From Eledone cirrhosa (Eukaryota): a DNA stretch of 64,000 nucleotides. The DNA is taken from the NCBI GenBank assembly GCA_964016885.1, contig OZ024740.1:55862001-55926000 (forward strand), in the 5' to 3' direction. The notes below the pieces were generated by a model. That model did not search any database. It was given only the letters and a program-made list of their open reading frames with translations, and was not told the DNA's origin. A program made the position numbers and the translations under genes. Positions 1,975 through 62,986 of this stretch are shown here, one piece after another (the stretch's first letter is position 1; each line of letters begins with the position of its first letter).

Positions 1975-2059
1975 TTTATTTGGCGTATGGGTGTTTGAAT
2001 TATAAATATTAGAGTTTCATTTATATATATTATTATTTTTATCAAGATTAAGAGTTGGA

Positions 2060-2480
2060 TTATTATTATCTACATATTCTATATTATTCACATATCCTGC
2101 TCTTTTTAACGCGTTGTTGTAATATTCAGCGTTTTCGTCAAATATAGCTTTATAGGCTGATATTTTATTAATTCGTTTTTGCACACTATTTACTATAGCC
2201 TTTTTTTTACAGATTTGGGGTGATTGGAATGGTTACTAACATAGTTTAAGTTTTCATTGGGCTTATGAAAAGGGTAATAAAAGCCAGTGTTTAAGTTAAA
2301 CGTAACGTCTAGGAAATTAACTATTTTGGTACCATTTTCTACTTCTAACTTAAGGTCATACATTTTAAAGAATTCTATTATACTATTCTTTACTCTATTT
2401 AGTTCTATATTGTTGTGTTTGACCACCGTAAATAAAATGTCGTCCCTATATAAACCACCTATATAAACCACCAAATTCAC
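2060..2480 (-). pseudogene. PLE reverse transcriptase C-terminal part and thumb
   Basis: YRDD catalytic motif, FLDVT and SNHP motifs; frameshift near 2200. Confidence 0.85.
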
Positions 2481-2706
2481 GAGATGTTTTCCTACATAAC
2501 CATAATTGTAGTATCCTACATTTTAAAATCTCTATAGCTGTCACATTAACCAACGTTTTTCTTACTCACAAATTCTCTATTGAATTTAATACGTTTTCGC
2601 ATTTTCTCATTATTAGGGTATAAGTGTTGAGTTTTCTCTTAGGTTAATTACTACCTTGATTAAATCTTAACCATTTAACATCTCAGCGTATGTCATGTAT
2701 CATTAT

Positions 2707-5614: not shown

Positions 5615-6930
5615 TGTTACAAAATTCCAGAGGACGAGTTCGGTATAGAGTTAGTTCCACAAAAATTAGCAAACCCTATTTGAGGATACGTGTTTCATCA
5701 GAGGAATTATTCAGCTAGTGTATGGTTATAGCGAGAACGGAAATATATGTGAGCTAGCTGGATTCTGCAGATGTCGGTAATTTGATGACAAGGGAGACAA
5801 GTCAAATTTGACTTTTGTAGCGGACATCTTTTGAAGTATGATCACTTGTGCTAGTTCAGTCCGCGTTAAACTTCTAGTTATCATGGGTTCTCCCAGCTAC
5901 GTAATAGAAACTTCGCAGCGTGCGGGCAGCTATTAAAAAAATCTGCTCCCGTCTTATGTCAAGTACTCTTACGTAACCTCTGCAAAATATTCACTTTTTC
6001 ATCGATACACAACTTACAGGACACTGCTCCATTTCCATATGGCCTCGATTTTGTTAGAAATCTCCATTGAATGGCGAAATTCAGTCTGCATCCTTGAGTA
6101 ACAAAACGTGGCTTGCCAACTTCATGAACTATCCTTTATCAGAGAAAATATACCAGTCCTCCGACATTACTACATCTGTTTTGACCTCCTGGTGTTGATG
6201 CGGCCGAGTGGATGTAACTTCAGCATCATAGACGACTGCTGGTGTGTTACACTGTTGATTAAGAGGGCATGATTGCAGCTTTCTGCAAGAAGATCTGGGT
6301 TGGGGAGAGCTCTTGGAGTCGTTGGTGATGTGGTGTTTCATATTTTTAACTAAGGAATATCCGAGTTTCACCGTATGTCTTTTAAAAATAGGTCTTTATT
6401 TATGTCATATGGGGAAGTGTTTATCTTAGAAGGCTAATAATTTATTACCTTCACGAGAAAAGTGGGCAGGACCGAATCATATTTTATTTCTAATTTTCTT
6501 TCTACTTGTAGTGAGATTAGGAAGGGAGTAAGAATTTTTATCGGAGAGCCGCTGTTGGCTAATGCATTGTTATAGTAAGCTGCCGCTATGTCAAAGATGG
6601 CTTTGTTAAAAGAAATATTAGAAATCCTAGTGCTGATCTTTTTAATGACGTTTTTAAAAACCGTAAGTGGGTGATATGAGTCCTTGTGTATATAAGTTAA
6701 TTCTTTATTAAGTGTGTGGAAAGGTCTCAATGTGTGTGTACGAAGGTCTAGGTTGGTGTCTAAATAATTGACGCTAGTCAGATAGGGGGCTACAGTGATC
6801 TTAATTCCTAAATCATAGGACTTCCATAAGTCTGTCAAGGTCGTGACAGCTTTTATGGCTCGATTGGTTCAGACCTTCATCATGATATAAAGACGTGTGG
6901 AAGTCCAGACATTTGACAGGCAATGTATCT
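5615..6930 (-). mobile_element. Decayed Naiad-type PLE fragment (RT end, thumb, endonuclease)
   Basis: VNYLDTNLDL..LRPFH..YIHKDSYHP..RISNIS..AAAYYNNAL; SCRKLQSCPLNQQC..VVYDAEV. Confidence 0.8.
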
Positions 6931-17639: not shown

Positions 17640-18960
17640 GACTTTTCGACGAAGAACATTCCAAATCCACCGAGAAAAATCTGCTTAAGGACACTCACAC
17701 AAAAAATCGATATGTTCGTGAAACGCTTGAGATGGCGTGCCTTCTTTTATGACAGACGTGAAAATACACACAAGCTTGACCAAAACGATAAATACCGATT
17801 CGAAACCTACAGAACACATCAGCCACCCCCTTACTCTCACCGTTCGTAGCGGATCTATTCAACCTGGTCAAATGAGTTAAGTTCAAGCACCGTACCAACC
17901 AATTACAACAACAACTCCGTCATAAGATACGCGAGTACGGAAGCACCAACTATATCCTCGTGTACTCCATCAAAACCCGCTATTCACATTTTGTCAACCC
18001 AGGTAGTTACAATTCCCTGATTAACAACAGCTTTACCCCCACCTACAGAAAGTTAAATCCTTGTGTGATCCAGGAGATAAATGCGGAGGGACGCAATATC
18101 ACATTCAACCTCACTATTTTAGTTTGAACTGAACCTTTCGACACACGCATTCCTTAATTCACCCTCAAGGGCCATAAAACACGCTTCGATCGCAAACCTA
18201 CCATCCGCCTTATAAACCCGATGAAGTCAGACATAGGGAGGATAAGTAAAAGGATCCTGGATAAAATTATACCGAAAGTTATGCAACAAGCGAGGTTCAG
18301 CCTATGGAATAGTACACATTTCCTGGTTCCAAAGTATCACTGACAACGCGAATAATAAGTTTACCTAGTTCGACATCGAGAATTACTACGTCCCAATAAC
18401 TAAACTGCTCTTGGGGGTCGAAATTACGCCCGAAATATCATAACCATTAATGATGAGGAAATCGACATAATACTCTACGATTGGAAGACCCTCTTGCTCT
18501 TCGAAAACTCACCAGGATAAAAAGGGCCCCAGACTCGCGCTTCAATGTTAGTATGGGAGCAACAAACTCGGTGGAGGTAACAGATATGATAGGCCTGTAC
18601 ATACTCCAGAAACTAATAGAAAGATTTCATGCTTTCGGAGGATTCATGCATAAAGATGACGGGCTTGTGACTCTTACCGGACACAATCCTAGTAGTACAG
18701 ACTGGGTTCACAAACATCTCATCAAGTTCTTCTGGGAATTAGGATTTTACGTCACCTTACAAACGTCCCTCACCTGTACCAACTTCTTAGACATAACCCT
18801 AAACTTGGAGAACCAGCTTCACTACCCCTTCAGGAATCCCAATGAAAACGTACATTATATCCACCTATACTCAAACCACTCAAGAATATAATTAACAATT
18901 TGGTAAAGTATATCTCCTTCCCTATATCACGCCTGTCTGTTAACAAACATATCTTCCATA
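17640..18960 (+). pseudogene. Decayed Naiad-type PLE reverse transcriptase
   Basis: LKGHK..FDRKPTIRLINPMKSDIGRISKRILDKI; FDIENYY; FNVSMGATNSVEVTDMIGLY; HKDDGL; NFLDITLNL. Confidence 0.88.
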
Positions 18961-23290: not shown

Positions 23291-23800
23291 AATAAAACAT
23301 ATAATAATAAAGTAAAAAGAAAATAATAATATAAAAAGATAAATAAATAATTAAAAAAGTAATTAAAAACTATATATAACAGGTGATTTAGTTCTCCATA
23401 ACTTAGAGTTATAAAAATACTAAGAGGCCCCTAAGGCACCTTCAGAAAGTCCAAAGGGGATTTAATTCATCCCATAGTATACATAATCAGGGTATATTAG
23501 TAGGTTACGGAATTACGTGGACCAGGGGTGCTAAACATGTACATAGAAAAGCACAAAATCAATACAAGCCAAACACAAACAAAGCGGGGTTAAAGCATGA
23601 TCAAGCTGAAGCAAAAATACATAACAAATATGGTTTAGTCCCTGTATAAGGTACATCTGGCGAGGAGTCACAACATATGGATATCCACCGTAGAGGTTAG
23701 TCCAATCGGTTTCATATGCCCCGATTGGCGAATATACATATACATATATATATATATGTGTGTGTGTATGTTTATATATATATATATATATACATATATA

Positions 23801-24990
23801 CCTCCCTGATGACGAAAGGATTTTCTTCATGTTGTTCCATTCGGAAACCATGTTTATTCCCTTTCAGAAACTAATTAGTTGGAGTGAAATTTTAGTAAGT
23901 TAATTTTTATAATTTTCTTATTTTACGTCTTTCATATAATTGTTCTGCATCCCTTGCATTGAACCACAAAGTTACTAAGACAAAACCAATATATTTGCTA
24001 GCATAGGTATGCATCTGTATATATATGTTGGTAGATATACTAATTCTTTATAATTATCTCCAAATTATTTTGTTGAGCAAAAATTTGCCAAAATTGCTAC
24101 TATAGTTCATAGTAATAGTTCGGCTACTGTCTTATTAGCACCCCACTCCTCACTGATTAACCTCGATGTCACGTGATTGATTCTTTTGAATTTGCCACAG
24201 ACCAAGTAGGCAGTGATTTTTTCAATGTCCTGGAATTTAGTCCTCGCTTGCTTTTATCCATCCACTGAATTATGTTTGTATAAGTTCCCTGTGTCCACGA
24301 TTGCTTGGGAACTTAGCTGAGAATAGACCTCCCTGATGACGAAAGGATTTTCTCCATGTTGTTCCATTCGGAAACCATGTTTATTCCCTTTCAGAAACTA
24401 ATCAGTTGGAGTGAAATTTTAGTAAGTGAGTTAATTTTTATAATTTTCTTATTTTACGTCTTTCATATAATTGTTCTGCATCCCCTTGCATTGAACCACA
24501 AAGTTACTAAGACAAAACCTATATATTTGCTAGCATAGGTATGCATCTGTATATATATGTTGGTAGATATACTAATTCTTTATAATTATCTCCAAATTAT
24601 TTTGTTCAGCAAAAATTTGCAAAATCTACTACTATGGTTCATAGTAATAGTCAGGCTACTGTCTTATTAGCACCCCACTCCTCACTGATTAACCTCGATG
24701 TCACGTGATTGATTCTTTTGAATTTGCCACCGACCAAGTAGGCAGTGATTTTTTCAATGTCTTGGAATGTAGTCCTCGCTTGCTTTTTTCCAGCCACTGA
24801 ATTATTTTTGTATAAGTTCCCTGTGTCCACGCATCGCCTGGGAACTTAGCTGAGAATTGACTATCTGATGACGAAAGGTATTCTCCATGTTGTTCCATTC
24901 GGAAACTATGTTTATCCCTTTCAGAAACTAATTAGTTGGAGTGAAATTTTAGTAAGTAAGTTAATTGTTATAATTTTCTTATTTTACGTC

Positions 24991-24996
<6 letters not shown>
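23801..24996 (+). mobile_element. Tandem ~530 bp repeat (about 2.25 units) with one hammerhead motif per unit; retrozyme-like
   Basis: CTGATGA at 23806, 24333 and 24865 (periods 527 and 532), each followed by CGAA.GG..CC.TTCG-GAAAC(C/T)ATGTT; (TA)n on both sides. Confidence 0.85.
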
Positions 24997-25042
<46 letters not shown>

Positions 25043-25046
<4 letters not shown>

Positions 25047-25093
25047 TCAGAAGATCCCGTTACGGGTGAAAGCAGCGATTTTTTGCTTAAACT
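25043..25093 (+). ncRNA. Type-I hammerhead-like motif with CAGAAGA core variant
   Basis: AGTTT-CAGAAGA-tCCCG tta CGGGt-GAA-AGCA loop TGCT-T-AAACT; second copy at 43566-43616. Confidence 0.65.
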
Positions 25094-25219
25094 TTAATCT
25101 GTTATTTTAATAAATATTTGCTCTACGGTTCTTATATATTTGATATATATTTATCGTTATCGAGCCCTCTTTAGATTTTTGTCTTCAAATTTATTATTAT
25201 TACTATATGTATATATATA

Positions 25220-26825: not shown

Positions 26826-28590
26826 AAAATAGTGACAACAAAACAAACGACAAACACAGTCCTGCCCAACCCCTCCCCACCTAAAACAACTCCAGAAACA
26901 CCCACACGCAACAGTTCCCCAAAACGTACCCCTCCCCAACAACACGGATGAGGCCTCATCATCGTCACCCAGTGCGATGAGGGAGAGCCTTTCCCACCAG
27001 TAAAAAGAAAAAAGAAAAGACATAAGACAAACAAAAATGCAACAAACACACAAACACCAACACAAGCGACGCAAACAGCACAAACAAAAACACCCCCTCC
27101 TGAAAACAAAACACCTACTACAAAACGTAAACACACACAAGAACCACAGGCAAAAAGCAACCCAACACAACAAAAATGTTACACCTACATAAATACTAAC
27201 AATAAAACTTTAACAGACACCATATATAAAAACCCTGCGGTGGAGACTGAAGGAAAACTTTTACACACTCTTCGGAGAATCCTAATCTTAAAATGATTAG
27301 GACCTCCATGGACACACATAAACAGCTGAAAGAAAAATTTCCTAACGACGTAGGTAATCCCTGCGTCAAACCCTACAATCGAGTCCTGTTAAAATGTTTC
27401 CCCACCAACACCCCCATCCCACCAGACATCCCCTCGCCACCAAACATCTCTGTCCCCACCCCTCCAGAGACCACCACCCCACCAAACAACCCCTCCAACA
27501 CCCCCATGGAAATTGTGCAGTCTGGTCCCCAGGAGACGAAGAGGTGAGTGATTTATTTTCCTCTTCTGTTAACTTTTCAGCACCAACATAAGAGTTGGAT
27601 GTGTGAATGTACGCGGCCTGGGGATGCCCTGGAAACAGGGCAAACTCTTAAACGACCTCAGGTCGCACAGCATGGATGTAGTAGCCATTTGCGAGTCCAG
27701 GATACACAGCGAGCTACAACTGGCCCCCATCTTCGACGACTTTGAGATCTACGCATCTCTCTGTCAGCCGGGAGGTGGGGTTGGGTTGGCGTTTTGCTGC
27801 GGAAACACCTGGACCTCGTAGCACAGACGGTACATCTGGACCTGGAGGGTCGACTGGTGGTCCTAGACGTTGACGGTAGTGAAGGTGGAGCTTTCAGGCT
27901 GGTGGCCGCATATGCCCCGTCCGGGACACCGCGGCCAGACTTCTTCAAACGTCTAGAGACTTTTCTGGGAACGTCCCACTCCCTGCTGTTAGTGGTGGAC
28001 GGAAATGGAATCCTAGATGCACGTTGGAATTATGTGGGAGCATGTCCCGATAGAGGGGGATGTAACAGCCTCAAACAGTTAATCGGCCGATTTGACCTGG
28101 CCGATAAATATCGACTAGATTTTCCGACTGTGCCACTATGTGTTATGGCTATGGTGAAAGAGGTTATATGGTGGACGAGGTTAAAAGGGTCAGACACCTT
28201 TCTCTCCGGCGAGCAACTGATTCGTTTTTTCAAATATCATTTTGGAAGAAGAATCAGGATGGAGAGAGATGTACTGTACCCCAGCAAATTTTATAAAAGG
28301 TGGGTGAATGTGGCAAGAATGGCCCGAGTGGTTGGGCCTTCTCTTTATATGAGCCTGTAGGTTGAGGAAAAAGAGGAAGAGAGGAAGGGAGTCCTCACTC
28401 TTGGTGCTCCTGGAGATGAGGGTTGTTCATTTGTTCGGGGTGTGTACAACCCTTGTGTAACACCTCCCCCTATTGGGGATTTCAATTGTTATTTGTTGTT
28501 TTATTAATAGTTTTATTTTCATATACCTGTATGTAAACTCTCCATTTGTATTTGTCCCTCTTTTGTGCCCTTGTGGCTAATAAATAAATT
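26826..28590 (+). mobile_element. L1/Tx1-type LINE, 5'-truncated and internally deleted (ORF1 end, APE N-half, ORF2 C-terminus, 3' UTR)
   Basis: NVRGLG..LLNDLRS..DVVAICES; FRLVAAYAPSG; jump from DFPTVP to LCVMAMVKEVIWWTRLKG; homologous to 35574-40290. Confidence 0.88.
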
Positions 28591-35380: not shown

Positions 35381-35855
35381 AATATGGTATAAAACAACGT
35401 GGTTTACATACATAGAAGAGTTCACATTTTTGTTTAACGCTTTCTCTCTTTCTTTCCTCACTGCAGCAGTGGTAGTGAAAGTAGCAGATGGAGGAGAACC
35501 GGCTCGTTCTATCTACTTGGTGTTGACCTCTACTGTAGTGGTAGAAAGAATAATAATAATAATAATAATAATAATGATTTCATTTATTGACCACAAGGGC
35601 CGACATATAGGGGACAATACAAAAGACTGGGACAGTGGGGTTTTACAGAAAAATCGAGTAAACAATATGAATAACAATAACAAAGTAACAATAACAAAGT
35701 AACAATAAAGTAACAATAAAATTACAACAAGAAAAAATTCCCCAATAGGGGGGATGACCACCTAGGGTTCGCTCAGGTACCCCACCAGTCCTGAACGACC
35801 CGACGCTTCGAGAGCACCCTGGAAGGGCACCCCTCTCCACTTCAAATTTACCTAC

Positions 35856-38287
35856 CTACAGCCGCATGACCAGAGTAGGCCCACTCACACGGGCCATTCT
35901 CGCCACATTCACCCACCTTTCAGCAAATGTACTGGGGGCAATATTTCTCTCTCCACCCTCACCTTCCTTTCCAAGTGAAACTTGAAAAAGTTGATGAGGG
36001 ATTGGCCGAAGAGAAAAGTGTCTGTCTTCAGTCCTTTCAACCTCGTCCACCATACAACCTCTTTCGCTACTGCCACCAGACAGAGGAAAATTGCCTGCCC
36101 TTCCTTGCCAAAAGAAGGCGGCGGGTCGATCTTCACTATGGACTAGGCCGATAGCCGGATCCGTTGTACAAGCGACAACAGCTGTTCAACATAACTCCAC
36201 AAGTCAGTAATGCACGGACACTGGACGAGTGCGTGCATAACGGTTTCGTCGCTCTGCTCGCATCTCGGGCAGGTCCGTCTGACAGCACTTCCGTGCCTGT
36301 AGAGTTTATCTCGAACCGGCAGTGCCCCCCGGTAGCACTGCCAAGTGAGGGATTTTGGGAAATTATCCATCGTCCCCGGCTCGAAAGTCCTCCGGTACAG
36401 ACTGGTTAGTTCGACTCCGTTGACTCCCAGAGCCTCTCCGAGTGCGTCGTCGCACTTGCCCTCTATAGAACTCGAGAGTGGAAATTCCACTGACCGCATT
36501 GCCCGCCTGGTAGAGGGCAGTGAGTGCCTGGCAACATTCCAGATGCCAGTCACCCAGTCTCGGTCTCTTCTTGACCCTCTCTATGATGTATCGCATTAGG
36601 TGGAGGTTGTCGTGTATGGACCTGGTTGGGGTTGCGCAAGTTTGCGCCTCCCCAACCAAGTCCTCGACGACAAGCGCCAACCTCTTCGCTAACACCCTGG
36701 CCAAAATCTTAAACTCTGTTGAGCAGAGTTATGGGCCTAAAATTGTCTAATGTGTCCCTCTTGTTCTCGTATTTCCTTATCAGTGTCACTACGCCCCGGC
36801 TCACAGAACTGGGAATACTCCCGTTTTGCTGCCAGTTGCAGTAGAGGGCTTCGAGGAGATTGGAGAACAAGTCTGGCATATTTACGTAAAGCTCGTAGGG
36901 AGACCATCCAAACCGGGTGACTTGCGCCTCATGTAACCGACAAGGGCATCCTGAATCTCGGCTGAAGTAATTGGCCTTTCGCAGCGCCCAGCGTCAGCCG
37001 TCGAGAGTTGATGCAAGCCATCGAGGTAGGGACTGAAGTCCACCACCATCTCTGACCCGCCACTTCCCCCGAACAGCCGAGCAAAATGTTGGCGAAAGGC
37101 CTCACACATCCTCTTGGAATCGTTCAGCTCGTGTCCGTCTCGGTCCGTCAAAGACCGAATCGTGGTTTTATTTCCACGCTGCGCCTCTGCCACGCGGGCC
37201 CATCGAACAGCTTTGATTCCCTCGTTTCTCAGAGCACGCGCCTTAGCTCTGACAATGCAACCTTCGTGTTTCGCATTGAAGAAAGGGTCTAATGCCATTC
37301 TTGCCGCTAGCACATCAGTTGCAATGCCACTACCAATAGCCTCGTCTAACTTATCTACCAACTCCCCCTCCTTTCTATTTTTCTCTAATGCTACTTCTTT
37401 GCTAAACTCTATCGACATTACTCTAATCTCTCTTTTGAGAGCCCCCCACCATCTATTGTTGACGACTCCCCTGTCAACTTTTTCTTAACTAAATTGTTGA
37501 CCTGGTCCCTGTAGGCCTTATGTGCCGGAAATGACATGTTTAGCTTCCAGTAACCAGGTCCTAACCTACGCGTCTTATCTAGGTCGACCATACAGATCAC
37601 AAACTTGTGATCTGAATAGGCGACCGTTTCAAAACGTGGACAGCTTACACTATTTTTGTCTATTTTCCTAATGAATATCCTGTCTATATACGATCTAGAT
37701 GACCCTATGCGGTTAGCCCAGGTCCACACTGGCGCATTAGGGAAATCTAGTCGGTACCTGTCAGACAGTTGGAACTGGCTGATCAGGTTATTGAGGCTTT
37801 TGCACCCCCCGCTCCTATCGGATACTCCCACACAGTCGCAGCGTGCGTCTAAGATGCCGTTCCAGTCCCCCGCTAAGAGTCAAGGGTGAGACGTACCCAG
37901 AAAGGCTTCCAGGCGTCTAAAGAAGTCCGACCGTCCTGCCCCACTAGGAGCATTGACGGCCACCAGTCTAAAGGCACCACCTTCATTATTGTTCACGTCC
38001 AGGACCACCAACTTCCCGTCCGGGTCCCGGAAGACGGACCTTACCTCGAGATCCAGGCCTTTCCTAAACAGCACTTCCACCCCGCCTCCCATTCCCGGCC
38101 GGCTAACAGATGCAAAGATCTGATAGTCGTCGAAAATGGGGGCTAGTGCGCGCGTGTCGGAAATCCTGGTCTCGCTGACTGCAATTACATCCATTTCTAT
38201 AGATCTGAGGTCGTTGAGCAGGTGACCCTGCTTCCAGGACGATCCCAGGCCTCGAACATTTAAACATCCTACTCTTAATACGGCCAT
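35856..38287 (-). pseudogene. LINE ORF2: apurinic endonuclease, partial RT and C-terminal zinc finger (frameshifted)
   Basis: CLNVRGL, VSET, SYIDRIF, SDHK; KSPGLDGLP; AQTCA..RSIHDNLHLMR; CPRCEQSDETVMHALVQC. Confidence 0.9.
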
Positions 38288-38318
38288 GTTGACAGGTTAA
38301 ACAGAGAGAGAGGAAGGT

Positions 38319-40142
38319 TTACTTACCTTCCGGGCTCTTGTGAAGGTCGGGTTGTTCGACCTCCATAGTTAGTGGGATTTCTTTTGGGAACCCCTTTAAA
38401 AGTCTTGAAGTGGGTTTTACGTTCGGGGTTCCCACGTCCCGAGGAAAGCTGTCTCGTATTTCTTTGAATATGTCGAGCGACATTCGCACCAGAACCAAAT
38501 CTTCCGGCACGCGAAATGGGCTCGATTTAAACATTTTCCCCTCTTTTTGTATATTTTCACTTCGTGCTACGAGGGCCATCAGATCCTCCTGACGAGCACG
38601 AAGTTTTGTATGTTTTGTTGGTGTGATTTTATTTGTTTGCGTGGCTGTGGCGGTGATGGTTTTGGTGGTATTGTTTCGGTTGTATCTGTGTTTGTTGTGA
38701 GTGCGGTGTCTGTGGTTTCAGATGTTTGTGTGTATATTTGTTCTTGCGTCTGTTTCGGTTGTTTGCGTTTGGAGGATTCTGGTGATGGTGATAGTGGTGT
38801 TGATGTTGGTGTTATTGGAGAGATGTTTGCGTGGGTGGTGTCTGCGTTTTTATTGTGGGTGCTTTTGTGCTTTGTTGATTTTTTTTTTTTTTTGTTTGAC
38901 AGATTTCCTCGTTTCCCCCCTGGGTGGTCAATGTTGGTGGTGGTCTTTCTATTGGTGTTGTTGTTGGTGGTTTTGCCGGTGCTGGTGTTGGTTGTGGTCC
39001 TCGCCCAGACGTCGACAGCAGTGGAGCCTTTCGTCTCCTTGCATCTTTCAGCAGTTGAAGGCAGAAGGCTCGCAAATGGGTTTTTTCCCCACAAACAAAA
39101 CACTGCGGCCTTTTTCCTTCGGTCATAATGTGAATGACCGTCCCATTCTGAAGGCGGATGTGGTCCGGGATTGTCTTCACATTCTCGGGCCTGATCTGGA
39201 GAAGGATCTCCTGGTCAACCCCGGACCAGTCTTCTCTGGCCGTTCTGGTCACTTCTATAGGGACTGTATCCGTCCCCTCCACAATCACAAATCCCAGAAG
39301 CCACCACATGTCAAGTCCTGGTGGGATTCTGGGAATGCGGAGACGGGCCGTTCTTTTTCACATGTGGGAGGGGTACATTATGACCTTGCTGGTTTTGCAA
39401 GGAGTTATAGCGTGTTTCATAGCGAGGGCTTCTGACTTGAACAACACCGAAATGGTGCCGTACTGTCTGCCCCTCTCTATGTACTGGGTGTTTTCTCTGA
39501 TGCACCTCAGCGCGACTTCGACATCTTCTTGTGGGATTAAAGCTGCCCTTTTGGTTTGTGCTGAGATGCATCTATAATGCACTGTTTTGCGCTCCACTGC
39601 CTCAATAGCTTCTACCGGGACAGTTAAGTTGGCCCAAGTTTGCTCTTGCTTGATGAGCTTCCATGCCTGGACCAACTTTTCATCTTTGTTTGAGAGGTCC
39701 ATGTTGAAGCATGGCCTCTTTTTTGCTGCTGCCGCAGCGAAAGTGTTCTTCTTGTTTTCGTTGGTGGTTTTGTTGTCGTTGTTCTTGTTGGTGTTGTTGT
39801 TAGCACTGTCGCTGTTATCATTGTTGTCTTTGTTGCCACCGTTGTTCTCGGTGCAGTTGGTATTGTTGCTGTTGGTGTTGTCGCTATTTGTTTTCATGTT
39901 AGTGGTATTGATATTGTTGTTGTATTTGTTTTGTTTTTTTTTGTTATCTGTATTTTCGTTGTCGCTGTTACTGTCATTTTTTTCAAAATTAGTGATCTTA
40001 TTGGTATCATTGGTGTCTTTGTTTACCTTGTTTGTGGTGGTGTTTGTGTTATCAATGTGTGTTAATTTCGCTGTAGCGCTCCTCTCAAATTCTACGTCGT
40101 TGTTGCACGACAGCCGACATATCGCTGGGAGGCTCAGCCATG
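38319..40142 (-). pseudogene. LINE ORF1 (frameshifted)
   Basis: Low-complexity N-terminus, RRM-like QYIERGRQYGTISVLF region, zinc knuckle EGKRPQCFVCGEKTHLRAFC. Confidence 0.8.
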
Positions 40143-40547
40143 TTTTTTTTTTTTCGTAAATTTTTTAACATGTAAAAATAAGTTCAAATATTTGGGCCAA
40201 ATAAGTTCAAATATTTGGGCCAAAAGGCCCAAATATTATACTTTCCCCTTCACGGGGCAAAGTCTAAGGGCTTATATCCCTTACACAACAAGAAATATTT
40301 AACAACAAATAATTTTAACAGGGAAATAAAGCGACTTACTGTGAGCGAGCAAAATACGTCCGCTTAGACCAATAATAATAAGAAGTAGAAGAAGAAGGAG
40401 GAGGAGCAGGAAGAAAAGAAGAAGAAGAAGAAGAAGAAGGAGGAGGAGGGGGAGGAGGAGGAGGAGGAGGAGGAGGAGGAGGAGGAGGAGGAGAAGAAGA
40501 AGAAGAAGAAGAAGAAGAAGAAGAAGAAGAAGAGTTATGACAAAGAA

Positions 40548-42404: not shown

Positions 42405-42847
42405 AATTTTGAGTATATGTTGGTTGTATACCAACACCTCAGTATGCAGATTGGAGCACTTGACGAAGTGCGCAGGTTGGTTTAGTTACTCCGGAGTAAT
42501 GTAAAATAAAATAAAATAAATAAGTCAAATGTTTAAAATTTAGCTTCGTTTATTACTGCTATATATATTTCGGTAACAGTCATCTTTGGCTGTGACCTCT
42601 TCAAGCAGTCCGAATTAGTGTGGTAGAGACGAGTACACGTGTTCTGGAGGTGTTTAACTTTGTCAATACTCTGATATGCCCAGTTCCTGGTTGGGTTTTT
42701 ATTTCACTGAGGAACTGAAATAGCCGTCGAAACGGCTTGAGCTCTGCCGTCGGGGTCATAATTTTTCCTATTTCCCACTCTACTATCCTAAGTATTGAGT
42801 ACTCTGGTGCGTTATGGTCCATCTGGTTCCTTACCACAATTCCTTTG

Positions 42848-42849
<2 letters not shown>
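42405..42849 (-). mobile_element. Non-coding hammerhead-bearing mini-element, family H (other copies 43036-43217, 44520-44770, 46545-46702, 47287-47465)
   Basis: Shared agccgtcgaaacggct hairpin and agagtactcaatacttagg blocks; (TA)n flanks. Confidence 0.85.
42556..42608 (-). ncRNA. Minimal hammerhead ribozyme motif (family H)
   Basis: CTGC-TTGAAGA-GGTCACAG..CTGTTACC-GAAA-TATATA-TA-GCAG. Confidence 0.8.
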
Positions 42850-42908
<59 letters not shown>

Positions 42909-43565
42909 TATATATATTTATATATGTAAAAGGTAAACAGACATAACACAATCGGTACAGTATATGTAAGGGATATATTAGGTTAACGCTTGATAGAGCA
43001 GGAAGAGGGTCTTAACGTTTCCGACACTAGTCATATATATATATATATATATATATAACAAAGGAATTGTGGTAAGGAACCAGATGGACCATAACCCACC
43101 AGAGTACTCAATACTTAGGGTAGTAGAGTGGGAAATAGGAAAAAGTATGACCCCGACGGCAGAGTTCAAGCCGTTTCGACGGCTTTAGCTCTGCCGTCGG
43201 GGTCATACTTTTTCCTATATATATATATATATCTTCGTTTTTTATATATATATTTATATATATATTTATATATATATATATTTATATATATTTATATATA
43301 TTTATATATATATTTTTATATATATATTTATCTTCGTTTTTTTCGTTCATTGCCAGAGAACGTGTCTATGAACTACTTAAGAGAACATTAGTCTACGACC
43401 TCTTTTATACCATAAACGTGGTTCTGTCTTTGCGCGTAATTGTTTTTCTCCGCACCTATTAATGCCGTATCTTATTCGTTTTTTCCCGTTCTTTGCCAGC
43501 GAACGTTTCCACGAACCAAAATATCGTCTTCCTGTCTTCCTCTGCGTTTACAGATTGACTTTGTT

Positions 43566-43616
43566 AGTTTCAGAAGATCCCGTTAAGGGTGAAAGCAGCG
43601 ATTCTTTGCTTAAACT
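43566..43616 (+). ncRNA. Second copy of the CAGAAGA hammerhead variant
   Basis: AGTTT-CAGAAGA-tCCC gttaa GGGt-GAAAGCA..TGCT-T-AAACT. Confidence 0.6.
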
Positions 43617-43652
43617 TTAATCTGTTATATTAATAAATATATATATATATAT

Positions 43653-44173
43653 ATAAATGGAATAGAATGAAACGAAATTTCATTCCTCACTCTTAGTACG
43701 ACACTTACTTAAATGCAAGTATGTATGTATGTATACGTACATACATATATGTATATAGACGTATAGTAGTATGTATATATATACACACATGCACGCATAT
43801 ATATAAGCATGTATCGGTTTACCGAACATGTATTATAATGCTCGGTTTGTTTGTAAACAAACAGCCCGAATTACGACGTACAGTGTTTAGGCAACCACGT
43901 CACCTTTTTGCTCAACACTGACACAAGAACGATGTACTGGTTTCAAGCTTATTAGCTATCGTCAGCATCGTATACCTTCCTGCCAGATGGTTGAACGTCT
44001 GAAAGTATATACTTTCCTTATGCATATTAACGGCTGAGCAGTCTAATTTGCATATCGAGTGAGTTCAGTCGGCCGGGCACACCGAAAACGATAAATGGAA
44101 TAGAATGAAACGAAATTTCATTTCTCACTCTTAGTTCGGCACTTACTTAAATGCAAGTATGTATGTATGTATA
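43653..44173 (-). mobile_element. Terminally redundant non-coding element (438 bp unit plus ~80 bp direct repeat) with a hammerhead
   Basis: ataaatggaatagaatgaaacgaaatttc... at 43653 and 44091; (TA)n flanks. Confidence 0.85.
43930..43970 (-). ncRNA. Minimal hammerhead ribozyme motif with canonical core
   Basis: CGATG-CTGACGA-tAGCT aata AGCTt-GAAAC-CA-GTA-CATCG. Confidence 0.9.
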
Positions 44174-44181
44174 CTATATAC

Positions 44182-44491
<310 letters not shown>

Positions 44492-44575: not shown

Positions 44576-44646
44576 TGCTATATATATTTCGGTGACAGTC
44601 ATCTTTGGCTGTGACAGTCATCTTTGGCTGTGACATCTTCAGGCAG
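44576..44646 (-). ncRNA. Hammerhead motif (family H) with a 19 bp duplication in stem II
   Basis: TGC-CTGAAGA-..(gtcacagccaaagatgact)x2..-GAAA-TATATA-TA-GCA. Confidence 0.75.
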
Positions 44647-44765
44647 TCCGAATTAGTGTGGTAGAGACGAGTACACATGTTGTTAAGGTGTTTAACTTTG
44701 TCAATACTCTGAGTCCAGAAATAGCCGTCGAAACGGCTTGAGCTCTGCCGTCAGGGGTCATAATT

Positions 44766-44843
<78 letters not shown>

Positions 44844-45937: not shown

Positions 45938-46503
45938 CCTTGAGCTATTTTAATTATAGGTGACTTTTGTGAGTTTTTAACTTAATATATACATTTGATA
46001 AATTTGCTCCATCGCTTTTGTTGAGCTTTTATAAATATATCGGATGGTCCTGACATCTATTTTTCTAGTAACCTTACTTTCTATTCGATCCGCCTGGCAC
46101 ATTATTTCCATGTACTCCCTCGTTTAACGCTCCTGTTATTTAGTATACTACCAAACATAGTAGTGAAGTGAATATTGATGTGGTATCCTTTGAGAATCCA
46201 CACCCCAATAACTCTCCTCACTGAATTTTCCGAAACAGTTCTACTCACAAACTGTCCAGGTTCTTGATAGTTATCATGGTAGATTCATTTTTCTCAATTC
46301 CTCCTCTTGATTGGCTTGTGTGAACCATACTATTCTAGTCAATATTTCCTTTACCCAAGCGGTCTATGTCCCTTGTGATTTGAACACATACAGTTATATA
46401 TCTGTGTTCGGCTCTCCTTACATTATTATAAGGCTGGGGAAAATGTTTCTCCTTGAGCTATTTTTATAGAGGACTTTTGTGTGTTTTTAACTCAATATAT
46501 ATA

Positions 46504-46546
<43 letters not shown>

Positions 46547-46758
46547 TCCAGGTGGACCATAACGCACCAGAGTACTCAATACTTAGGGTACTAGAGTGGG
46601 TAATAGGAAAATGTATAACCCCAACGGCAGAGCTCGGTACTCGAGTACAGAAATAGCCGTCGAAACGGCTTGAGCTCTGCCGTCGGGGTTATACATTTTC
46701 CCATATATATATATATGTGTGTGTGTGTGTGTATTGAGTTAATATATATATATAAATG

Positions 46759-47102
46759 ATAAATTACACAATAATCAAAGCTATGTTCAAATCATTTTAT
46801 TGCTGACAATCGTTTGGAACCATCGGAGCAGTAGCAATGTCTGTACATATAATTAACCTCCTATTCAACTGAACATGTCGTATAGATGCATGGACATTAA
46901 TGTTGTCAACAACAGTTTCGAATCTACAACTATTGTTGACAACATTAATATCCATGTATCTATATGATTGTTCAGTTGAATAGGAGGTTAATTATATGTA
47001 CAAACATTGCTACTGCTCCGATGATTCCAAACTAAAGTTTGGAAGAAACGATTGTCAGCAATAAAATGATTTGAACATAGCTTTGATTATTGTGTAATTT
47101 AT
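46759..47102. repeat. ~160-175 bp-arm palindrome containing a hammerhead
   Basis: Arms 46759-46917 and 46928-47102 are near reverse complements. Confidence 0.9.
47014..47060 (+). ncRNA. Minimal hammerhead motif (CCGATGA core)
   Basis: TGCT-CCGATGA-TTCCAAAC taaa GTTTGGAA-GAAAC-GATT-GTC-AGCA. Confidence 0.8.
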
Positions 47103-47224
47103 ATTCCGGCTCTGTAAAACATCTCATGTATTTACATTGAACTATTTTTCTTACTGGTAATAAGGTAGTAATAAATTACTGACCTTTCCTGTTTATAGTT
47201 GTATATAGTGTATACATAACTATA

Positions 47225-47290
<66 letters not shown>

Positions 47291-48520
47291 AAGGATGTGT
47301 GGTAAGGAACGAGGTGGAGCATAACGTACCAGAGTACTCAATACTTAGGGTAGTAGAGTGTGTAATAGGAAAATGTATAACCCGGACGGCATAGCTCAGT
47401 ACTCGAGTACAGAAATAGCCGTCGAAACGGCTTGAGCTCTGCCGTCGGGGTTATACATTTTCCCGTATATATATATGTGTGTGTATATTGAGTTAATATA
47501 TGGGTGTGTGTACAATGTACATTGTACACACACATACACACACACATATATATATACATGTATACACAAACACATATATGTGTGCTGGTGGGTGTGGGTG
47601 TGTAACTACTAAACATCTACAGCCCTCACTCCCAGCATTTATAACTTTGTAGTATGCACTATACTATCGCTAAAGATCTTAGTTGCTTATGTCACCTTGG
47701 AATAGGCACAAATACCCTCTCAGCCCTCTCTCGCTTGATCCAAGTGATGTCACAGGAGTGGGAGGTGAATAGCTAATTGAGGAAAGAACGTATTTCATAA
47801 GTAGGGAAAAGATATCTTTGTTTGACTGAATAGCGAAATTATATTAGCAAAGATAACTTCAGCTTGACTTCATAGTAAATGCAATAATTTCTTTTCTTTG
47901 GTTAACTTCATAGCAAAACATGAATTTGGGATTTTTATATAGATTTTCAATGTATCCTATCGTTTTCACTGATAAGAATAATCTGTTTTCATTCTTTAAT
48001 ATCTTACGGGAGAATCTTTACATCATTACTCGACCAGCTAGACATAGCTGCTTGAATAACGAACAATTTTCAACGAACTGTTTGGAGAAAGTAACGATAC
48101 ATTGTAACGGTACATATGAGTTGTTGGTAATTTTTTTTAATTATTTGGTCGTCCGTCGGCTCCATAACACAAAACGTAAAAATTGAAACATTATCTCATT
48201 AAATCCGTTTATCAGTTCAGACTAGATAACAACACAGAATACTATGTATCGTTATAGCATGGATTCCAGTTGGTAATGAATGCATTTTCTACTCTTTTTC
48301 CTGATAATAGGCAAAGGATGGCTAACTGCTATTAAACATTTCTTTAGCGGAGCTGCTACTGTTGAGCACTTTGATCATTCTGTCACTGTGTTAGTCGTAC
48401 TGGTCGTACATTTGTTGTGTCAAGTAAAAATGTAATCATTTTGTCTGACTCACTCCCTTAATTTGAGCGTTCTTTAACAATATTTCTTCTTCTTCTTCTT
48501 CTTCTTCTTCTTTATTGTTA

Positions 48521-48554: not shown

Positions 48555-50930
48555 TCTTTGAGTCTCAGTCATTGATGTTAGTTAACTGGAAAGTTTGTTG
48601 AAATGAATATCAAGCCGCTACCTGCAGCCTCAGATATTCAGGACGTATCGGAGGGTTCTTGCTGTTCCCAGCAAGCATGCCTTTTGAAGCGTTCCAAAAA
48701 GCGTGAAGAGGCCAATTTTCTTTAACCATCCCTGGAAACTTTTTGAGATAGTACCCAGTGCGCCTATGACAATCGGGACCACTTTGACTTCATGGCAGTT
48801 CCAAATCCTTTTTACCTCCCACTTTAAGTCCTGGTATCGTATAATTTTTTCTCCCTCTCCTTCTCTTGCACTCTCGTGTCGAATGGGCAGGCCACATCCA
48901 CAATCAGGCACGATCTTTTTTCTTTGTCCAAAACCACCAGGTCAGGTCTATTGTGTTCCAGTTTCTTGTCCGTCTGTATCGTAAAATCCCACAGCACCTT
49001 CACCTGATCGTTTTCTATCACCGACTCTAGCTTATGCTCATACCACTTCTCAGAATGTGGTAAATTGTTTACTTTGCATAGGTGCCAGTGGATCACCCTG
49101 CCAATCACATCATGTCTCCAGCCCTTATAGTGAGTCTTGGCTAGGTGTTTACACTCGGATACAATGTGAGCCACAGTCTCCTCTCTCTCTCCACAGATCC
49201 TGCAGAGTGGGCTAGCCTCTTCCTTGTAAATATGGTGTTTCAACCACTTCGCTTTGAGAGCCTGCTCTTGCGCAGCCATTAACATTCCTTCTGTAGCCTT
49301 TTTAAGATCTCCTCTTTTCAACCAGTTCCATGTCTGTGAATCTCTGAATTCAGTTTTCTCAAAGAAGGTACTATGAAGGGATTTTTCCTGAAGGCTGCTC
49401 TTTCTCCTTGTTGTTATTTCCTCCCTGGACATCCCCTGGTCTATTCTCCTCTCCTTCAGTACAGTTCTGAGCATTGGCTCCTTACTATCAGTCACGTATT
49501 TGTGTAGGTTGTTTTTCTCCATCTGAACACAGTCCTCTATGCTGATAAAACCTCTTCCACCTTCAGATCTCCTTAAGTAGAGTCAATCGACATCACTCCT
49601 CTTGTGGAACATATTGTAGATAGTGAATAATTTCCTAGTCTTCCTATCCATTTCTTTTTGTTCAGCAACATTCCATCTCAGAATTCCCGCACTGTACCTA
49701 ATAATAGACACAGCTCGGGAATTTACTGCACTTATGGCATTCCTACTGTTCAGATGTGACTTTAATACGCTCCTTACTCTCCGAATATATTCAGTTCTTG
49801 ATGTCATCAGCCTCCAGAACACCCAAATACTTGTATCCTTCTTCAGTGTCAATTTCCTTTATCATCTCACCTGTTGGCACCTGGATTCCGTTGCTTCTGC
49901 TCAATTTACCCCTCTTCATCACAAGGACTCCACACTTACTAATACCAAATTGCATACATATATCATTGCTCAAAATACGGACAGTGTCAACAAGCACATC
50001 CAACTCCTTCTCGCACTTCCCAAAGAGCTTAAGATCGTCCATGAAGAAGAGGTGATTGATGGTAAGCTCTCCCTTTCCCAACTTGTATCCTGCTCTCACC
50101 TTTCGCAGTATAATGGTCAGGGGCATCAGGGCAAGGACAAACAACAGAGGGGACAGACTATCTCCCTGGAAGATACCTCTCTTGATCTTCACGCCTCCCA
50201 AGGATTCTCCAGCTGATGTTAACTCTGTTTCCCAGGACTTCATACTTTTGCCCAACAACTGTCTGATGTTATCTGCCACCTTGAAAATCGCTAGGCTTTT
50301 GGTGATCCAAGAACGAGGCACCATGTCAAATGCCTTTTTGTAGTCTATCCATCCCATGGCAAGACCAGTGTGTCTCCTCTTGCAATTCCTCATTACCATC
50401 TTATCAATAAGTAACTGGTCCTTTGTACCACGGGACTTCTTTCGGCATCCTTTCTGTTCATCCGGTAACAAGTTGTTTGTGTGGAGGTGATGGTAGATTT
50501 CCTCAGACATAATTCTTGTCAACAGTTTCCACATTACGGACAGACATGTGATAGGTTTATAGTTGGTAACATCATTACCCTTGATTCGGTCCTTCATTAC
50601 CAGAACTGTGGTACCTTTTGTCAACCACTCTGGTACCTCACCTGACATCAAGCAGTCATTGAACATGGTTGTCAGTTTCGGGTGGAGAGATGTTATACTT
50701 TTAATCCAATACCCCTGCACACCATCTGGGCCTGTGGTTAGTTTTTTGGCCTGCCCCTTAAGAGTTTCAACTGTGATACTCAAGTCAGTTTGTTGGTGTG
50801 CCTGTTCACTAATCTCCTTCTGTACTGTCTCAATCCACACTGCCTGGTCATTATGTTTAACATCCTGCTCCCATATTCCTCTCCAGAATGTTTTAGTTTG
50901 TTCCGCCTCAGGGATCAAGTCGTTGCCTCT
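48555..50930 (-). mobile_element. 5'-truncated Dong/R4-type non-LTR retrotransposon (RT plus restriction-like endonuclease), frameshifted
   Basis: WIDYKKAFD, GIFQGDSLSPLLF, HLFFMDDLKL, YKYLG; CRICGEREETVAHIVSEC, RHD, RPDLVV..IVDVACPFD; (TTC)n(ATT)n on both flanks. Confidence 0.93.
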
Positions 50931-50945
50931 TTCTTCTTCTTCTTC

Positions 50946-52131: not shown

Positions 52132-52602
<471 letters not shown>

Positions 52603-52938
52603 GTATATACTTAGTGTAGTATAATTTGGTAAAAGATATCCAAAGTTGGAAGAATACTCAATCAGTGGGACGCGTTGTGGTATAGAGATGTTAATTAAAC
52701 AAACTAAGTTTCATTGGGTGCCGCTTTCAGATATTTCTGAATCAACCCATGAATCAATGGCTTCTATTTGCGTCTTCAACATAGGCTTTTAATTTAGGGG
52801 CTGATTCAGAAATATCTGAAACAGCGAGTGAGTTTGAAATTAGAAATAGAAGCTTTCGCCGTATTTTTTTACTAAATAATGTTTAGCCTGATAGTGGTGT
52901 TTAGAACCCTCTAAGAAATGGAAAAAGATTGGTATTGG

Positions 52939-57737: not shown

Positions 57738-60358
57738 TCACTCTTCATTCTTAACCCATCTAAAGAAGGATATTTTTAAGCGATGTGTACAACTTATCGC
57801 TGTTTCAGCTCTGCTGTTGATGAGCTCGTGGGGTGCAGTTATGATGTGGTAGAGCTCCATGAGGCAAAGATCGCATTTCCTCTTGAAGTTGTACGGTGCA
57901 GCCCTGCCGACAATCTCCCAGTGCGTGGAGAAGCTGATGTTTAAGTCCTTTAGTGATGTGATGTAGTCCGCGAGCGAAGTGGAGTGCCTTAGTTTTCTAT
58001 TTGTGAAAGAGTGGAGATGTGTTCGAAACCTAATTTTGAACGGGCCGGAGGTGGCCCCTATATAATGTTTAACGCTATTGTGGCTAGTAATAGTGCATCT
58101 ATATATAACCCTATCAGTCAAGCAGTATCCTCTAAGGGGGCAGCGTCCTCTGTCGCGGCAGTTGCAATTTCTGTCGCGGTTCCGTCTATTTCCCACGGTA
58201 AGGCTATCATTATTGCTGCCTACGTTGTTACCTACGCTACCGCAGCTGTCGTTAGCACAATTACAACCCACAGCACGCGGGATGGTGCGATTGTTATTCC
58301 GCACGTCATGTTCTGCATGTTCCCCAGTCACTTCGCGGTCATTCTGGTTGCGTCTGCGGATGCCGCTGCCAACACTATTGGATGCTGTCAGGGAGTTGTT
58401 AAGGCCGATATAGTTATTGTCAGGTGTAGGTGCGTCTGTGTCGAGGTGCTGTGTCTTGGTGATCTTACTGTGGTTCGTTGTTCCTATGATGTCTGCTAGG
58501 TTAGGAGTAGTAGAGAAGGATATTTTTATATTGTTCCTATTAAGAATTTTTCTATACCTATGGTTGGGTGGGAAGTTCTTCTCTAAGGCTTCGAAGAATA
58601 TCCGGGGTATGTTGGAGGCCACACTTCGAGAGTAGGGGGGGGGGGAACCATAGGACGTTACGGTGGCGATTACGTGTCCTTGTACTTTTGCTACGGGTGG
58701 TTCCATCTAAGTGATCGCTCTTATGTGTGTTAATGCGCTGTCGCCCGTTCGGTGCCCCTTTCACTTTATGCTCGGGTGCACTCCTTCTACCTCTTCCATG
58801 TTTATGTACACGAAGATGTTGGTTGGAAGGCGTTGGTAGTAGGCCGACGCCTTTGTTGGTTTTGTAATAGGGGAATAGTTTGAGTAATCTACAGTATTCA
58901 CCGTCGCCGGGGACGTGATCTTTGGTGCGGTTATCTATTCTATTATATCCGACTTTAACGAGGTCGCCGCGTGATCGGTTATAGGTATGGCTTACTATAA
59001 CGTTAGTTTTATGAGGGGGTGGTTTCTAGAGCTAGCGTTAGGGATGTAGGAAATTCCTCGGTTAAAGCCGGCGCTTAACAGGGCCCTATTGTAGTAATCA
59101 ACCGCTTGGTTGAAGATATCCTCATTGGCGGATAGCCTCGAGATTCTATGTGAGATACTATAGACTATGGAGTTGAGAGTCTGCTTAGGGTGGTTGGAGG
59201 CATAATTAATATAAGAGAGGCACTCTCCAGGCTTATGGTATGGCTTGTATAAGCCTGTACTCAACTCCAGGGTCACGTCCAAGAAGTTGACAACCCTGTG
59301 GTTGAGGTCCATAGTTACGGATAGGCCGTATGACTTAAAGAACCTGTGTATATGTTTGTTAAGGTTCTCTATCCTACGGGGGCTATGGTTCCTAACGGTA
59401 AACAGGGCGTCGTCCCTATATACAGCTCCTTGTAGGGCCGATATTTCTTCCCTAAGCTTATGTAGGAGGTATATCCCAACCAGGTCAGTTGCTTGCGCTG
59501 AGTCGCTGGACCCCATCGTGACATCGAAGTTATCAGGACGGTTGGTTCTGGTCCAGTGGGAGCCTTCGAACTGGATAATGGTTCTACGTGCCGCTAGAAT
59601 TATGTCTATTTCTTTTTTGGTGAGGCTAGTGTTAGATCTAGCTAAGATAAGTGCCTTATTTAAGAGTATGGGGGAGATAGAGGCGTAGTAGCTATCTATA
59701 TCAAACTGGATGAATTTCAGGGTGGCTTTATCCGGCAACTCGGTGAACCAATTTATGACCTGGTTGGTGTTGCCCCAGAGGCAGACCTTAGCCTTTCTAT
59801 TAAGCTCGAGTAGTACTCTGTCGAGGATCACTTTACTAATCTTACCTATATCTGATGTAGAGGGGCATATTAGTCTAATAGAGGGGCTTTCATTAAAGTC
59901 ATATTTGTGATCCTTAAGAGAGAATTTAGGCGTCAGAGGGACGTACGGGTTAGTGTACTTTTCTATTTCTAAGCTGGTGACTATATCCTTCCCTACTCTA
60001 TTTATGTCATTTAGGGTACTAGAGGGTGTCTTTTTGTAGTCTTTGTGTAGTTCCTTATAGATGAATTTGTTATACTCACTCGCGTCCATCTTGTACAGCT
60101 TTTTGGTTTTGTCGGAGGTGACGAAGAGGTGCGGGTCATTCTTGATCTTAGTTATTAGTGTATCAAGGGACGTTAAGAATGGATTGCTGCATTGGTGTTT
60201 CTTTCTGAGCTTAACGTTTTTGATCATTTTCAGCAGGTCCTCTTCAAATAAGTCCAGTAAGGTGTTGTGCGGTGGGTTTCGGTATGTTTTGAAACCATAC
60301 TTCTCTTTGGGTTCAGGAAGGTTACGGGTGTTCTTATCCAGGTGGTATGCCTTCCATC
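57738..60358 (-). CDS. PLE polyprotein (RT plus GIY-YIG), interrupted by about 3 frameshifts
   Basis: RWKAY..KYGFKT; SDKTKKLY; LKDHKYDF..IRLICPSTSDIGKISK; QFDIDSYY; VTMGS; YRDD; RNVLWFPPPYS; CNCRDRGRCPLRGYCL; VIYRC..YIGAT..FKIRF..H; CDLCLME; LINSRAE. Confidence 0.9.
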
Positions 60359-61984: not shown

Positions 61985-62392
61985 AATCTACCAAAATATA
62001 CGGTAGTGTCCAATCCGTATGAAGAACTCAATGTAATCCAAATATGATAAGAGAAGATGCATTCAAAAATGTTCGAAAAAAATCATAGGAAAACAGAGTC
62101 AAGATAAATTAATAAAAACAATGAAATAAAAACAAAGTACAAGTTCTTTATATTAAAAAATTCATCATTTTGCGATCGTTTCTAGGATGTATATGTGTGT
62201 TGTCATATAGATCTATGTAAAAATATTACAAATTATGAGAGGAAATATACATATCTTCACATATATATGCTGTCTTCAGAAATGATATCTATACATCCTA
62301 GAAACGATCGTAAAATGATGAATTTTTTAATATAAAGAACTTGTTCTTTGTTTTTATTTCATTGTTTTTATTAATTTATATATATCTATATC

Positions 62393-62686: not shown

Positions 62687-62979
62687 TATAACAACTAGAA
62701 ATTGATTAACATATAAATAAACATGAATAATCACTGAGATAATTTTTACAAGTGTGTAACCACACATAGCTAGGTAGGTAACTAAATAAAGTTGACCAGA
62801 ACTTCAAAAATAGATACCTTATAATATGATTAATCTGATTAATCATATTATAAGTTATCTATTTTTGAAGTTCTGGTCAACTTTATTTAGTTACCTACCT
62901 AGCTATGTGTGGTTACACACTTGTAAAAATTATCTCCTGTGATTATTCATGTTTATTTATATGTTAAGCAATTTCTAGT

Positions 62980-62986
<7 letters not shown>
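62687..62986. repeat. ~150 bp-arm near-perfect palindrome within a (TA)n-flanked element (62561-62986)
   Basis: Centre gattaatc-t-gattaatc at ~62836; few arm mismatches. Confidence 0.92.

Follow-up and report, generated by a model that had tools for sequence, protein, structure and literature searches.

Previous studies have described non-LTR retrozymes as tandem units of 150–450 bp that carry type I hammerhead ribozymes and are expressed as circles, with Penelope-like elements (PLEs) as their proposed helpers (PMC7229834). The idea that a circular RNA serves as template has already been published for these elements (PMC7229834), and a proposal of 2014 explains head-to-tail PLEs by the copying of circular RNA over more than one unit (PMC4209133). 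The usual animal type I hammerhead has a helix III of 1–2 bp and a palindromic loop, and is active as a dimer in tandem transcripts (PMC4209133; PMC7229834). A preprint by Li, Clavereau and Pollet (10.64898/2026.07.22.740005) links retrozymes to the pseudo-LTRs (pLTRs) of PLEs, mainly in vertebrates; the portion drawn on here counts many monomer copies and uses distribution and pLTR similarity. In vitro, an anole PLE cleaves AT-rich DNA, extends both strands and initiates at a fixed internal site, with hammerhead cleavage dispensable and uncut RNA as the main substrate (PMC11167929, in the sections cited). An inverted, 5′-truncated piece beside the 5′ end has also been described for PLEs (PMC8557442, section 6).

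Here, we analyse a locus at 43653–44174 of a 64-kb window, by which we mean the whole stretch of DNA under study. With good confidence, we regard it as a copy, 1.19 units long, of a non-coding 438-nt repeat that occurs in high copy number, ends at a fixed 3′ position next to (TA)n, carries a hammerhead predicted to depend on dimers, and is likely a non-LTR retrozyme that owes its mobility, in trans, to a PLE, most probably one of the Hydra clade. Both this class of element and the proposal that circular retrozyme RNA is copied by PLEs are already known. What the family adds is evidence from insertion signatures in a host that, judged by the repeat content, is probably an invertebrate: the 3′ end is fixed, the target is (TA)n, 5′ inversions seem to be present, and the hammerhead resembles that of Hydra PLEs. 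The literature searched, mostly papers outside subscription, contained no published description of the 438-nt family or of a shared-variant test like the one given below, and an octopus repeat-annotation paper has no passage with the word "ribozyme".

Anatomy of the locus and its hammerhead motif

Microsatellites and broken retroelements abound in the AT-rich window, which suggests an animal genome. At the locus, 1.19 units of the repeat lie head-to-tail between TA microsatellites (Table 1). Read along the minus strand, the last 84 nt of the monomer (44174–44091) come first, followed by a whole monomer (44090–43653) and then by (TA)9, the long TA run being on the opposite side. A preliminary description of this DNA had recognised terminal direct repeats at a spacing of 438 as well as (TA)n flanks, and we find both: the repeats are 84 nt long and 96% identical, with three differences, and the (TA)9 faces a TA run that spans 44158–44313 as a whole. 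Because the 5′ side sits inside this run, a target-site duplication is unreadable. The longest ATG-initiated open reading frame (ORF) of the monomer encodes 49 aa in the sense direction and 66 aa in the antisense direction, even when the monomer is doubled. Within the 64-kb window, no second copy of the element was found, and no inverted, 5′-truncated piece was seen at the locus itself. Folded as a circle, the RNA of the unit is predicted to be 69% paired. The folding z-score of the monomer is −5.88, a value on which we do not rely, since the self-complementary TA tract inflates it. A predicted hairpin just ahead of the fixed 3′ end is a possible recognition signal for the reverse transcriptase (RT).

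Table 1. Features of the 438-nt element and its flanks, in window positions.
Feature	Positions	Strand	Remarks
Full 438-nt monomer	43653..44090	-	non-coding
Upstream partial copy (pseudo-LTR)	44091..44174	-	5′-truncated; last 84 nt of the monomer
3′-terminal repeat	43653..43736	-	43653 is the family's fixed 3′ end and the putative start of reverse transcription
Head-to-tail junction	44090..44091	-	family-wide
Low-complexity TA/CA tract within the monomer	43720..43815	.	self-complementary
Predicted 9-bp hairpin	43665..43685	-	12 nt ahead of the fixed 3′ end
(TA)9, target remnant at the 3′ end	43637..43654	.	about 9 units; overlaps the element's terminal AT (microhomology)
(TA)n run on the 5′ side	44175..44313	.	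TA run as a whole 44158-44313
Type I hammerhead motif	43930..43970	-	C3 at 43965
Predicted self-cleavage site	43934..43935	-	from the position of the NUH triplet
Predicted extended stem I enclosing the core	43909..43997	-	internal bulges; -28.7 kcal/mol
Helix III hexamer	43936..43941	-	palindromic in the family (dimer-type); broken at 43939 in the locus copy

The minus-strand motif consists of a 5-bp stem I, CUGACGA, a 4-bp stem II with a basal U·U, GAAA, a helix III of 1–2 bp and GUA. The NUH triplet puts the predicted cut at 43935/43934, where the preliminary description had placed it (about 43935); the 3′ end lies 282 nt away and the head-to-tail junction 156 nt. These distances, together with the lack of any pile-up of ends at the cut among those listed (see below), bear out the earlier view of an insertion longer than the unit whose ends lie away from the cleavage site. 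A type I descriptor, composed after the motif had been seen, has two matches in the window (the motif with C3 at 43965, and another at 52401) and none in 200 Markov-resampled windows. Rfam gave no family at gathering score in the window, and none of its 39 weak matches (E ≤ 10) is a hammerhead. Weak Rfam matches to miRNAs were rejected, as they arise from the TA tract at 43720–43815. Taken by itself, the 86-nt hammerhead region gains no folding stability over shuffled sequences (z −1.02), and the minimum-free-energy structure (MFE) of the locus copy pairs the CUG of the core with helix III, which is an inactive fold.

Family members in sequencing runs

Four of 23 sequencing runs were compared with 43440–44182 at 85% likeness: X1 (contigs) and X21 (reduced-representation reads) from organism A, with X1 possibly the source of the window itself, X4 from organism B, and X6 from organism C. 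Matching records, which include those of a separate left-flank repeat, number 16686 contigs in X1, 76477 of 12.47 million reads (0.6%) in X21, 69 contigs in X4 and 3262 contigs in X6; summed contig depth was not taken as copy number. The family is high-copy in three organisms, and the preliminary description was right to expect other copies, which occur in all four runs. Positions 43624–43798 were outside the comparison, so the 3′ end was read via its twin site, 44091. What we report on variants, joints and loose ends refers to those listed, beside which there are a further 90 variants, 87 joints and 1021 loose ends. Motif scans for additional loci in metagenome contigs, viral contigs and genome contigs returned none.

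The head-to-tail junction, 44090/44091, is bridged in X1 (record 8), X4 (records 12 and 14) and X6 (records 20, 23 and 24), and X21 depth stays level across it (8175 at 44081, 7950 at 44094). The "start" of the monomer is therefore not an end. Loose ends with TA-rich flanks are found at 44091 in 55 X1 contigs, and at 44104, which is the same end site with a variant last dozen letters, in 22 X1 and 28 X6 contigs. These TA-flanked ends, in 77 X1 and 28 X6 contigs, indicate that the 3′ end of the family is fixed; a single X4 contig also ends at 44104 and is too short to reveal its flank. The 5′ ends are scattered, with no dominant one among the listed loose ends. Past 44168, 26016 reads continue as monomer, so that 44174 marks a 5′ truncation peculiar to the locus copy and does not bound an LTR. 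Permuted start points, which the preliminary description had anticipated among genomic copies, are not what we observe: the 3′ end is constant, at (TA)n, and the 5′ side alone varies. The family signature is the pseudo-LTR pattern of PLEs, that is, fixed internal initiation and 5′ truncation, not free circular permutation.

None of the six listed X1 loose ends forms a pile-up near the predicted cleavage site at 43934 (the smallest comprises 11 contigs, versus 77 at the 3′ end), no listed row has an indel at 43934/43935, and depth has no step there. X21 is a weak test for ends at this site, because its smallest listed loose end comprises 2476 reads. The X6 loose end at 43933 appears to be a diverged homologue and not a flank, and some X6 pieces (records 17 and 18) match the hammerhead region only and are then unlike the element for 133–700 letters. 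No piece among those listed is long enough for two hammerheads, and the locus at 43653–44174 carries one.

Eight joints between opposite strands are listed for the X21 reads, connecting scattered body positions (43863–43976) to 44021, 44113 or 44137–44168. Those near 44163–44168, at least, are 5′-to-5′ by the lengths of their sides. Each joint has 1–3 read starts in X21 and none occurs in the contigs; seven of the eight lie away from AATT and one lies at AATT. Some copies seem to be joined to inverted 3′ pieces, in the layout of 5′-inverted PLE copies. The 25287 X21 loose ends at 44113/44114 were considered as a second element end and rejected as a restriction-library artefact, since they fall at an AATT site and are absent from the contig lists. 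The X21 molecule ends at 43869, 44045, 44048 and 44117, likewise at AATT sites and absent from those lists, were also attributed to the library.

The hammerhead core is the best-covered portion of the element in organism C. At 43939, the letter that makes helix III a 6-nt palindrome accounts for 99.8% of X1 depth, 98.4% of X21 reads, all of X4 and 93% of X6 depth. The locus copy has another letter here, and this letter converts a G·U of the inactive pairing to G–C. With its palindrome broken and its inactive pairing strengthened, the locus copy is probably a poor cutter. At 43968, a subfamily letter (63% of X1 depth, 28% of X21) would create a stem I mismatch unless the partner covaries, and no compensating change at the partner was found among the variant rows listed. 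When the commoner letters are placed in the fold of the locus copy, 2 of 13 paired positions improve and 11 show a weakened or broken pair. This preponderance of weakening changes is due in part to the variants being unphased and to a register that can shift, and we make no claim of covariation support for the fold. The hammerhead of the family is predicted to be of the dimer-dependent animal type I. The preliminary description had called the motif a canonical hammerhead; CUGACGA, GUA and the 5-bp stem I are indeed present, but "canonical" applies only in the sense of this dimer-dependent type, as helix III of the locus copy is non-palindromic and its MFE is inactive.

Origin of the terminal repeats and candidate helpers

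Both terminal repeats have a C, at 43716 and 44154; another letter accounts for 99.5% of X1 depth at this place and for 98.9% of X21 reads. Both also contain one TATG unit more than the commonest form, which is weaker evidence, because TATG units are prone to slippage. A variant carried by about 1% of the family would seldom turn up in two independent units, so the two repeats likely stem from one template lineage. Between 43799 and 44090 there are at least 8 private changes (about 2.7%), while the repeats differ at 3 of 84 positions; roughly judged, this divergence would fit repeats that were identical at insertion and have changed since. A local duplication cannot account for the family-wide junction. 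The preliminary description had attributed the insertion to a circular or tandem RNA template. That claim stands insofar as both repeats share a rare variant, as expected if a template was copied past its own start, but it does not extend to the kind of template. Four origins would each fit the shared letter and are not separable by these data: a circle copied over 1.19 turns, an uncut multimer whose source was homogeneous, a return to the same RNA by template jumping, and gene conversion at a later time; an uncut multimer or a template jump explains it as well as a circle does.

Which PLEs might have supplied the enzyme? An element on the minus strand of the window (60365–57320) contains RT and then GIY-YIG endonuclease frames, broken between the frames, with RWK, DKT, CxCX5C, CxxC and CxH motifs. 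In the sections of PMC8557442 drawn on here, these motifs and insertion into (TA)n are features of Hydra-clade PLEs. The element also has a variant core resembling that of a hammerhead near 57436, some 60 nt ahead of a TA run. A Pfam search with the PLE frames of the window returned no family and a homologue search returned three unnamed proteins, so the assignment to the Hydra clade rests on the motifs. The (TA)n-targeting PLEs of this clade, present in the window, are the likely helpers. The cleavage-to-end distance is 282 nt in the 438-nt element, compared with about 60 nt in the Hydra PLE of the window, and neither the body nor the 3′ end of the 438-nt element has similarity to PLEs in the 64-kb window (best outside match 13 nt, E 0.21). 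Naiad PLEs were dropped as candidate helpers, being without canonical hammerheads. Broken Penelope-like fragments are also present at 1246–2500 (minus strand; 30% identity, E 5e-37, to the endonuclease frame 57738–58706), 6434–6868 (minus) and 18457–18891 (plus).

Several other repeats populate the window. A second retrozyme-like insert, at 23796–24999 on the plus strand, has 2.3 head-to-tail units of about 527–531 nt that are 92–95% alike, with TA runs on both sides; its first unit is 5′-truncated, and each unit has a CUGAUGA...GAAA hammerhead-like core in which stem I is not evident. The TA-flanked piece at 52262–52550 contains the type I match at 52401 (plus), with a long stem II; next to its 5′ side its own 3′ part recurs in inverted orientation, in the manner of PLE 5′ inversions. 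At 43440–43640 (plus), a separate high-copy repeat reaches the same (TA)9 from the opposite side. Of this repeat, 76 nt match 25042–25117 at 96%, and a look-alike of the core, CAGAAGA...GAAA, is present with U·U under its stem; other copies carry 29 inserted nt at 43541/43542. A family of TA-flanked hairpin repeats is represented by at least five copies on both strands (42573–43228, 44611–44838, 46495–46757, 47212–47501). Long self-inverted segments, up to 96% alike over 300 nt, occur at 46759–47102, 52167–52609, 62104–62379 and 62687–62986, and are possibly MITEs or PLE 5′ inversions. Frames of broken non-LTR retrotransposons lie at 35546–40164, 27589–28360 and 48824–50945, that at 49791–50945 matching RVT_1.

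We propose the following scenario for the 438-nt element. By extrapolation from known retrozymes, transcripts of tandem copies would be cut by paired hammerheads to release monomers. The monomers may then be ligated into circles, a step that we consider about evenly balanced. Next, (TA)n would be nicked by the endonuclease of a PLE, whose RT would begin synthesis at a single internal position that is always the same and lies 282 nt downstream of the cleavage site; the fixed end is seen in the contigs, whereas the identity of the enzyme is presumed. Having copied through the cleavage site and beyond its own starting point, RT would end at a variable place, in the present case 84 nt into the second round, so as to leave a pseudo-LTR with the anatomy seen here. 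The locus copy would since have decayed, its helix III palindrome now being broken and its cutting predicted to be poor. The most specific form of this scenario, in which a circular retrozyme RNA is copied by a Hydra-clade PLE from one fixed internal start, round the circle and beyond, with shared rare letters as its genomic fingerprint, is one that we advance tentatively and to which we give appreciable but minority weight.

It is also possible that the template was less elaborate. PLE-driven insertion from an uncut, linear, multimeric transcript of a homogeneous tandem locus would make a circle unnecessary, and this account is a real contender, if short of even chances. Uncut RNA being the main substrate of the anole PLE in vitro weakens the need for a circle; that PLE uses unprocessed RNA, and hammerhead mutants insert normally (PMC11167929, in the part cited). 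A dimer-type hammerhead, moreover, is slow to cut, and a homogeneous source array would also give both repeats the same rare letter. On the other hand, internal initiation on a linear multimer should always yield a product shorter than its source, and copies longer than the unit would shrink with each generation unless regenerated. Retention of the helix III palindrome in 93–99.8% (organisms A and C) likewise suggests that cleavage matters. Template jumping is known for non-LTR RTs. A linear, hammerhead-cut monomer might accordingly serve as template if RT jumped at the cleavage site from the 5′ end to the 3′ end of the same or another molecule, and a return onto the same molecule would likewise duplicate the rare letter; but the ends, indels and depth around 43934/43935 described above show no trace of such events in the rows listed, and we consider this route unlikely.

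The remaining alternatives question the nature of the element itself. PLE insertions are mostly 5′-truncated (PMC8557442, in the sections cited), and the X6 pieces that resemble only the hammerhead region could suggest that the locus is a solo terminal piece (pLTR or 3′ UTR) of an autonomous PLE outside the window, in which case it would not represent a retrozyme family in its own right. The ends of the 438-nt unit join each other, however, at a junction that is bridged in three organisms and level in X21 depth, and the unit has no ORF over 66 aa; a solo piece is quite unlikely. We give very little weight to the view that the hammerhead-like motif is incidental and that the locus is SINE-like, LTR-like or the product of a local duplication of DNA. 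A single fixed end beside a simple repeat does resemble a SINE, and the hammerhead is unscored by Rfam. Yet ARAGORN found 0 tRNA genes in the element, the only candidates for Pol III A and B boxes are look-alikes with one mismatch, 44174 is not a family end, and the hammerhead core is, as noted, the part best covered in organism C. This reading is largely refuted by the family-wide head-to-tail junction, which also speaks against local duplication.

The family suggests a cheap way to distinguish circle from multimer, namely to look for private variants common to both repeats of single 1.x-unit insertions. If a circle is indeed copied by a Hydra PLE, shared letters over thousands of copies would provide a direct, genome-scale test of the circular-template model, as yet a hypothesis both for retrozymes and for the pseudo-LTRs of PLEs, and retrozymes would be tied to the Hydra clade.

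Comparison with described systems

Like the non-LTR retrozymes of Cervera and de la Peña (2020; PMC7229834) and of the preprint (10.64898/2026.07.22.740005), as characterised in the sections used here, the 438-nt element has a non-coding unit within the 150–450 bp range, a type I hammerhead, a head-to-tail arrangement, high copy number, a self-paired RNA and PLEs in the same genome. Its helix III is as in HHR_Amex1, and the U·U under stem II is as in axolotl HHR_Amex2. The locus differs in having one hammerhead in 1.19 units, so that it is not "active" by the two-unit rule of the preprint, and in lying in (TA)n without a readable target-site duplication. At 438 nt, the unit is also slightly longer than the invertebrate retrozyme circles reported in these sources (170–400 nt).

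The insertion signature is shared with Hydra-clade PLEs (Craig et al. 2021, PMC8557442), for which the sections cited give (TA)n targets, a fixed 3′ end and a partial-tandem pseudo-LTR; their 5′-inverted pieces have an apparent counterpart in the X21 joints. U·U beneath stem II occurs in 14 of the 25 families of File S2 of that paper. In contrast to those PLEs, the 438-nt element is without an ORF, the distance between its hammerhead and the 3′ end is 282 nt, against tens of nt in theirs, and its helix III is loopless and palindromic where theirs are stems of 3–4 bp, a feature unlike all 25 rows of File S2. Non-autonomous Chlamys PLEs such as MRC1 (PMC8557442) are similarly non-coding, with pseudo-LTRs, head-to-tail copies and microsatellite targets. 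According to the portion of that paper cited, they generally resemble the 3′ end of an autonomous family and mostly lack a hammerhead, whereas the 438-nt element has a hammerhead and matched no partner in the window. Plant LTR retrozymes, as summarised in PMC7229834 and the preprint, also combine terminal direct repeats with a hammerhead and no coding capacity. Theirs, however, is a type III hammerhead inside true LTRs, accompanied by a PBS, a PPT and target duplications of 4 bp, whereas the hammerhead of the 438-nt element is of type I and falls outside repeats whose length is not fixed. Taken with the likenesses above, the element looks like an added member of the non-LTR retrozyme or non-autonomous PLE class, and not like a new kind of element.
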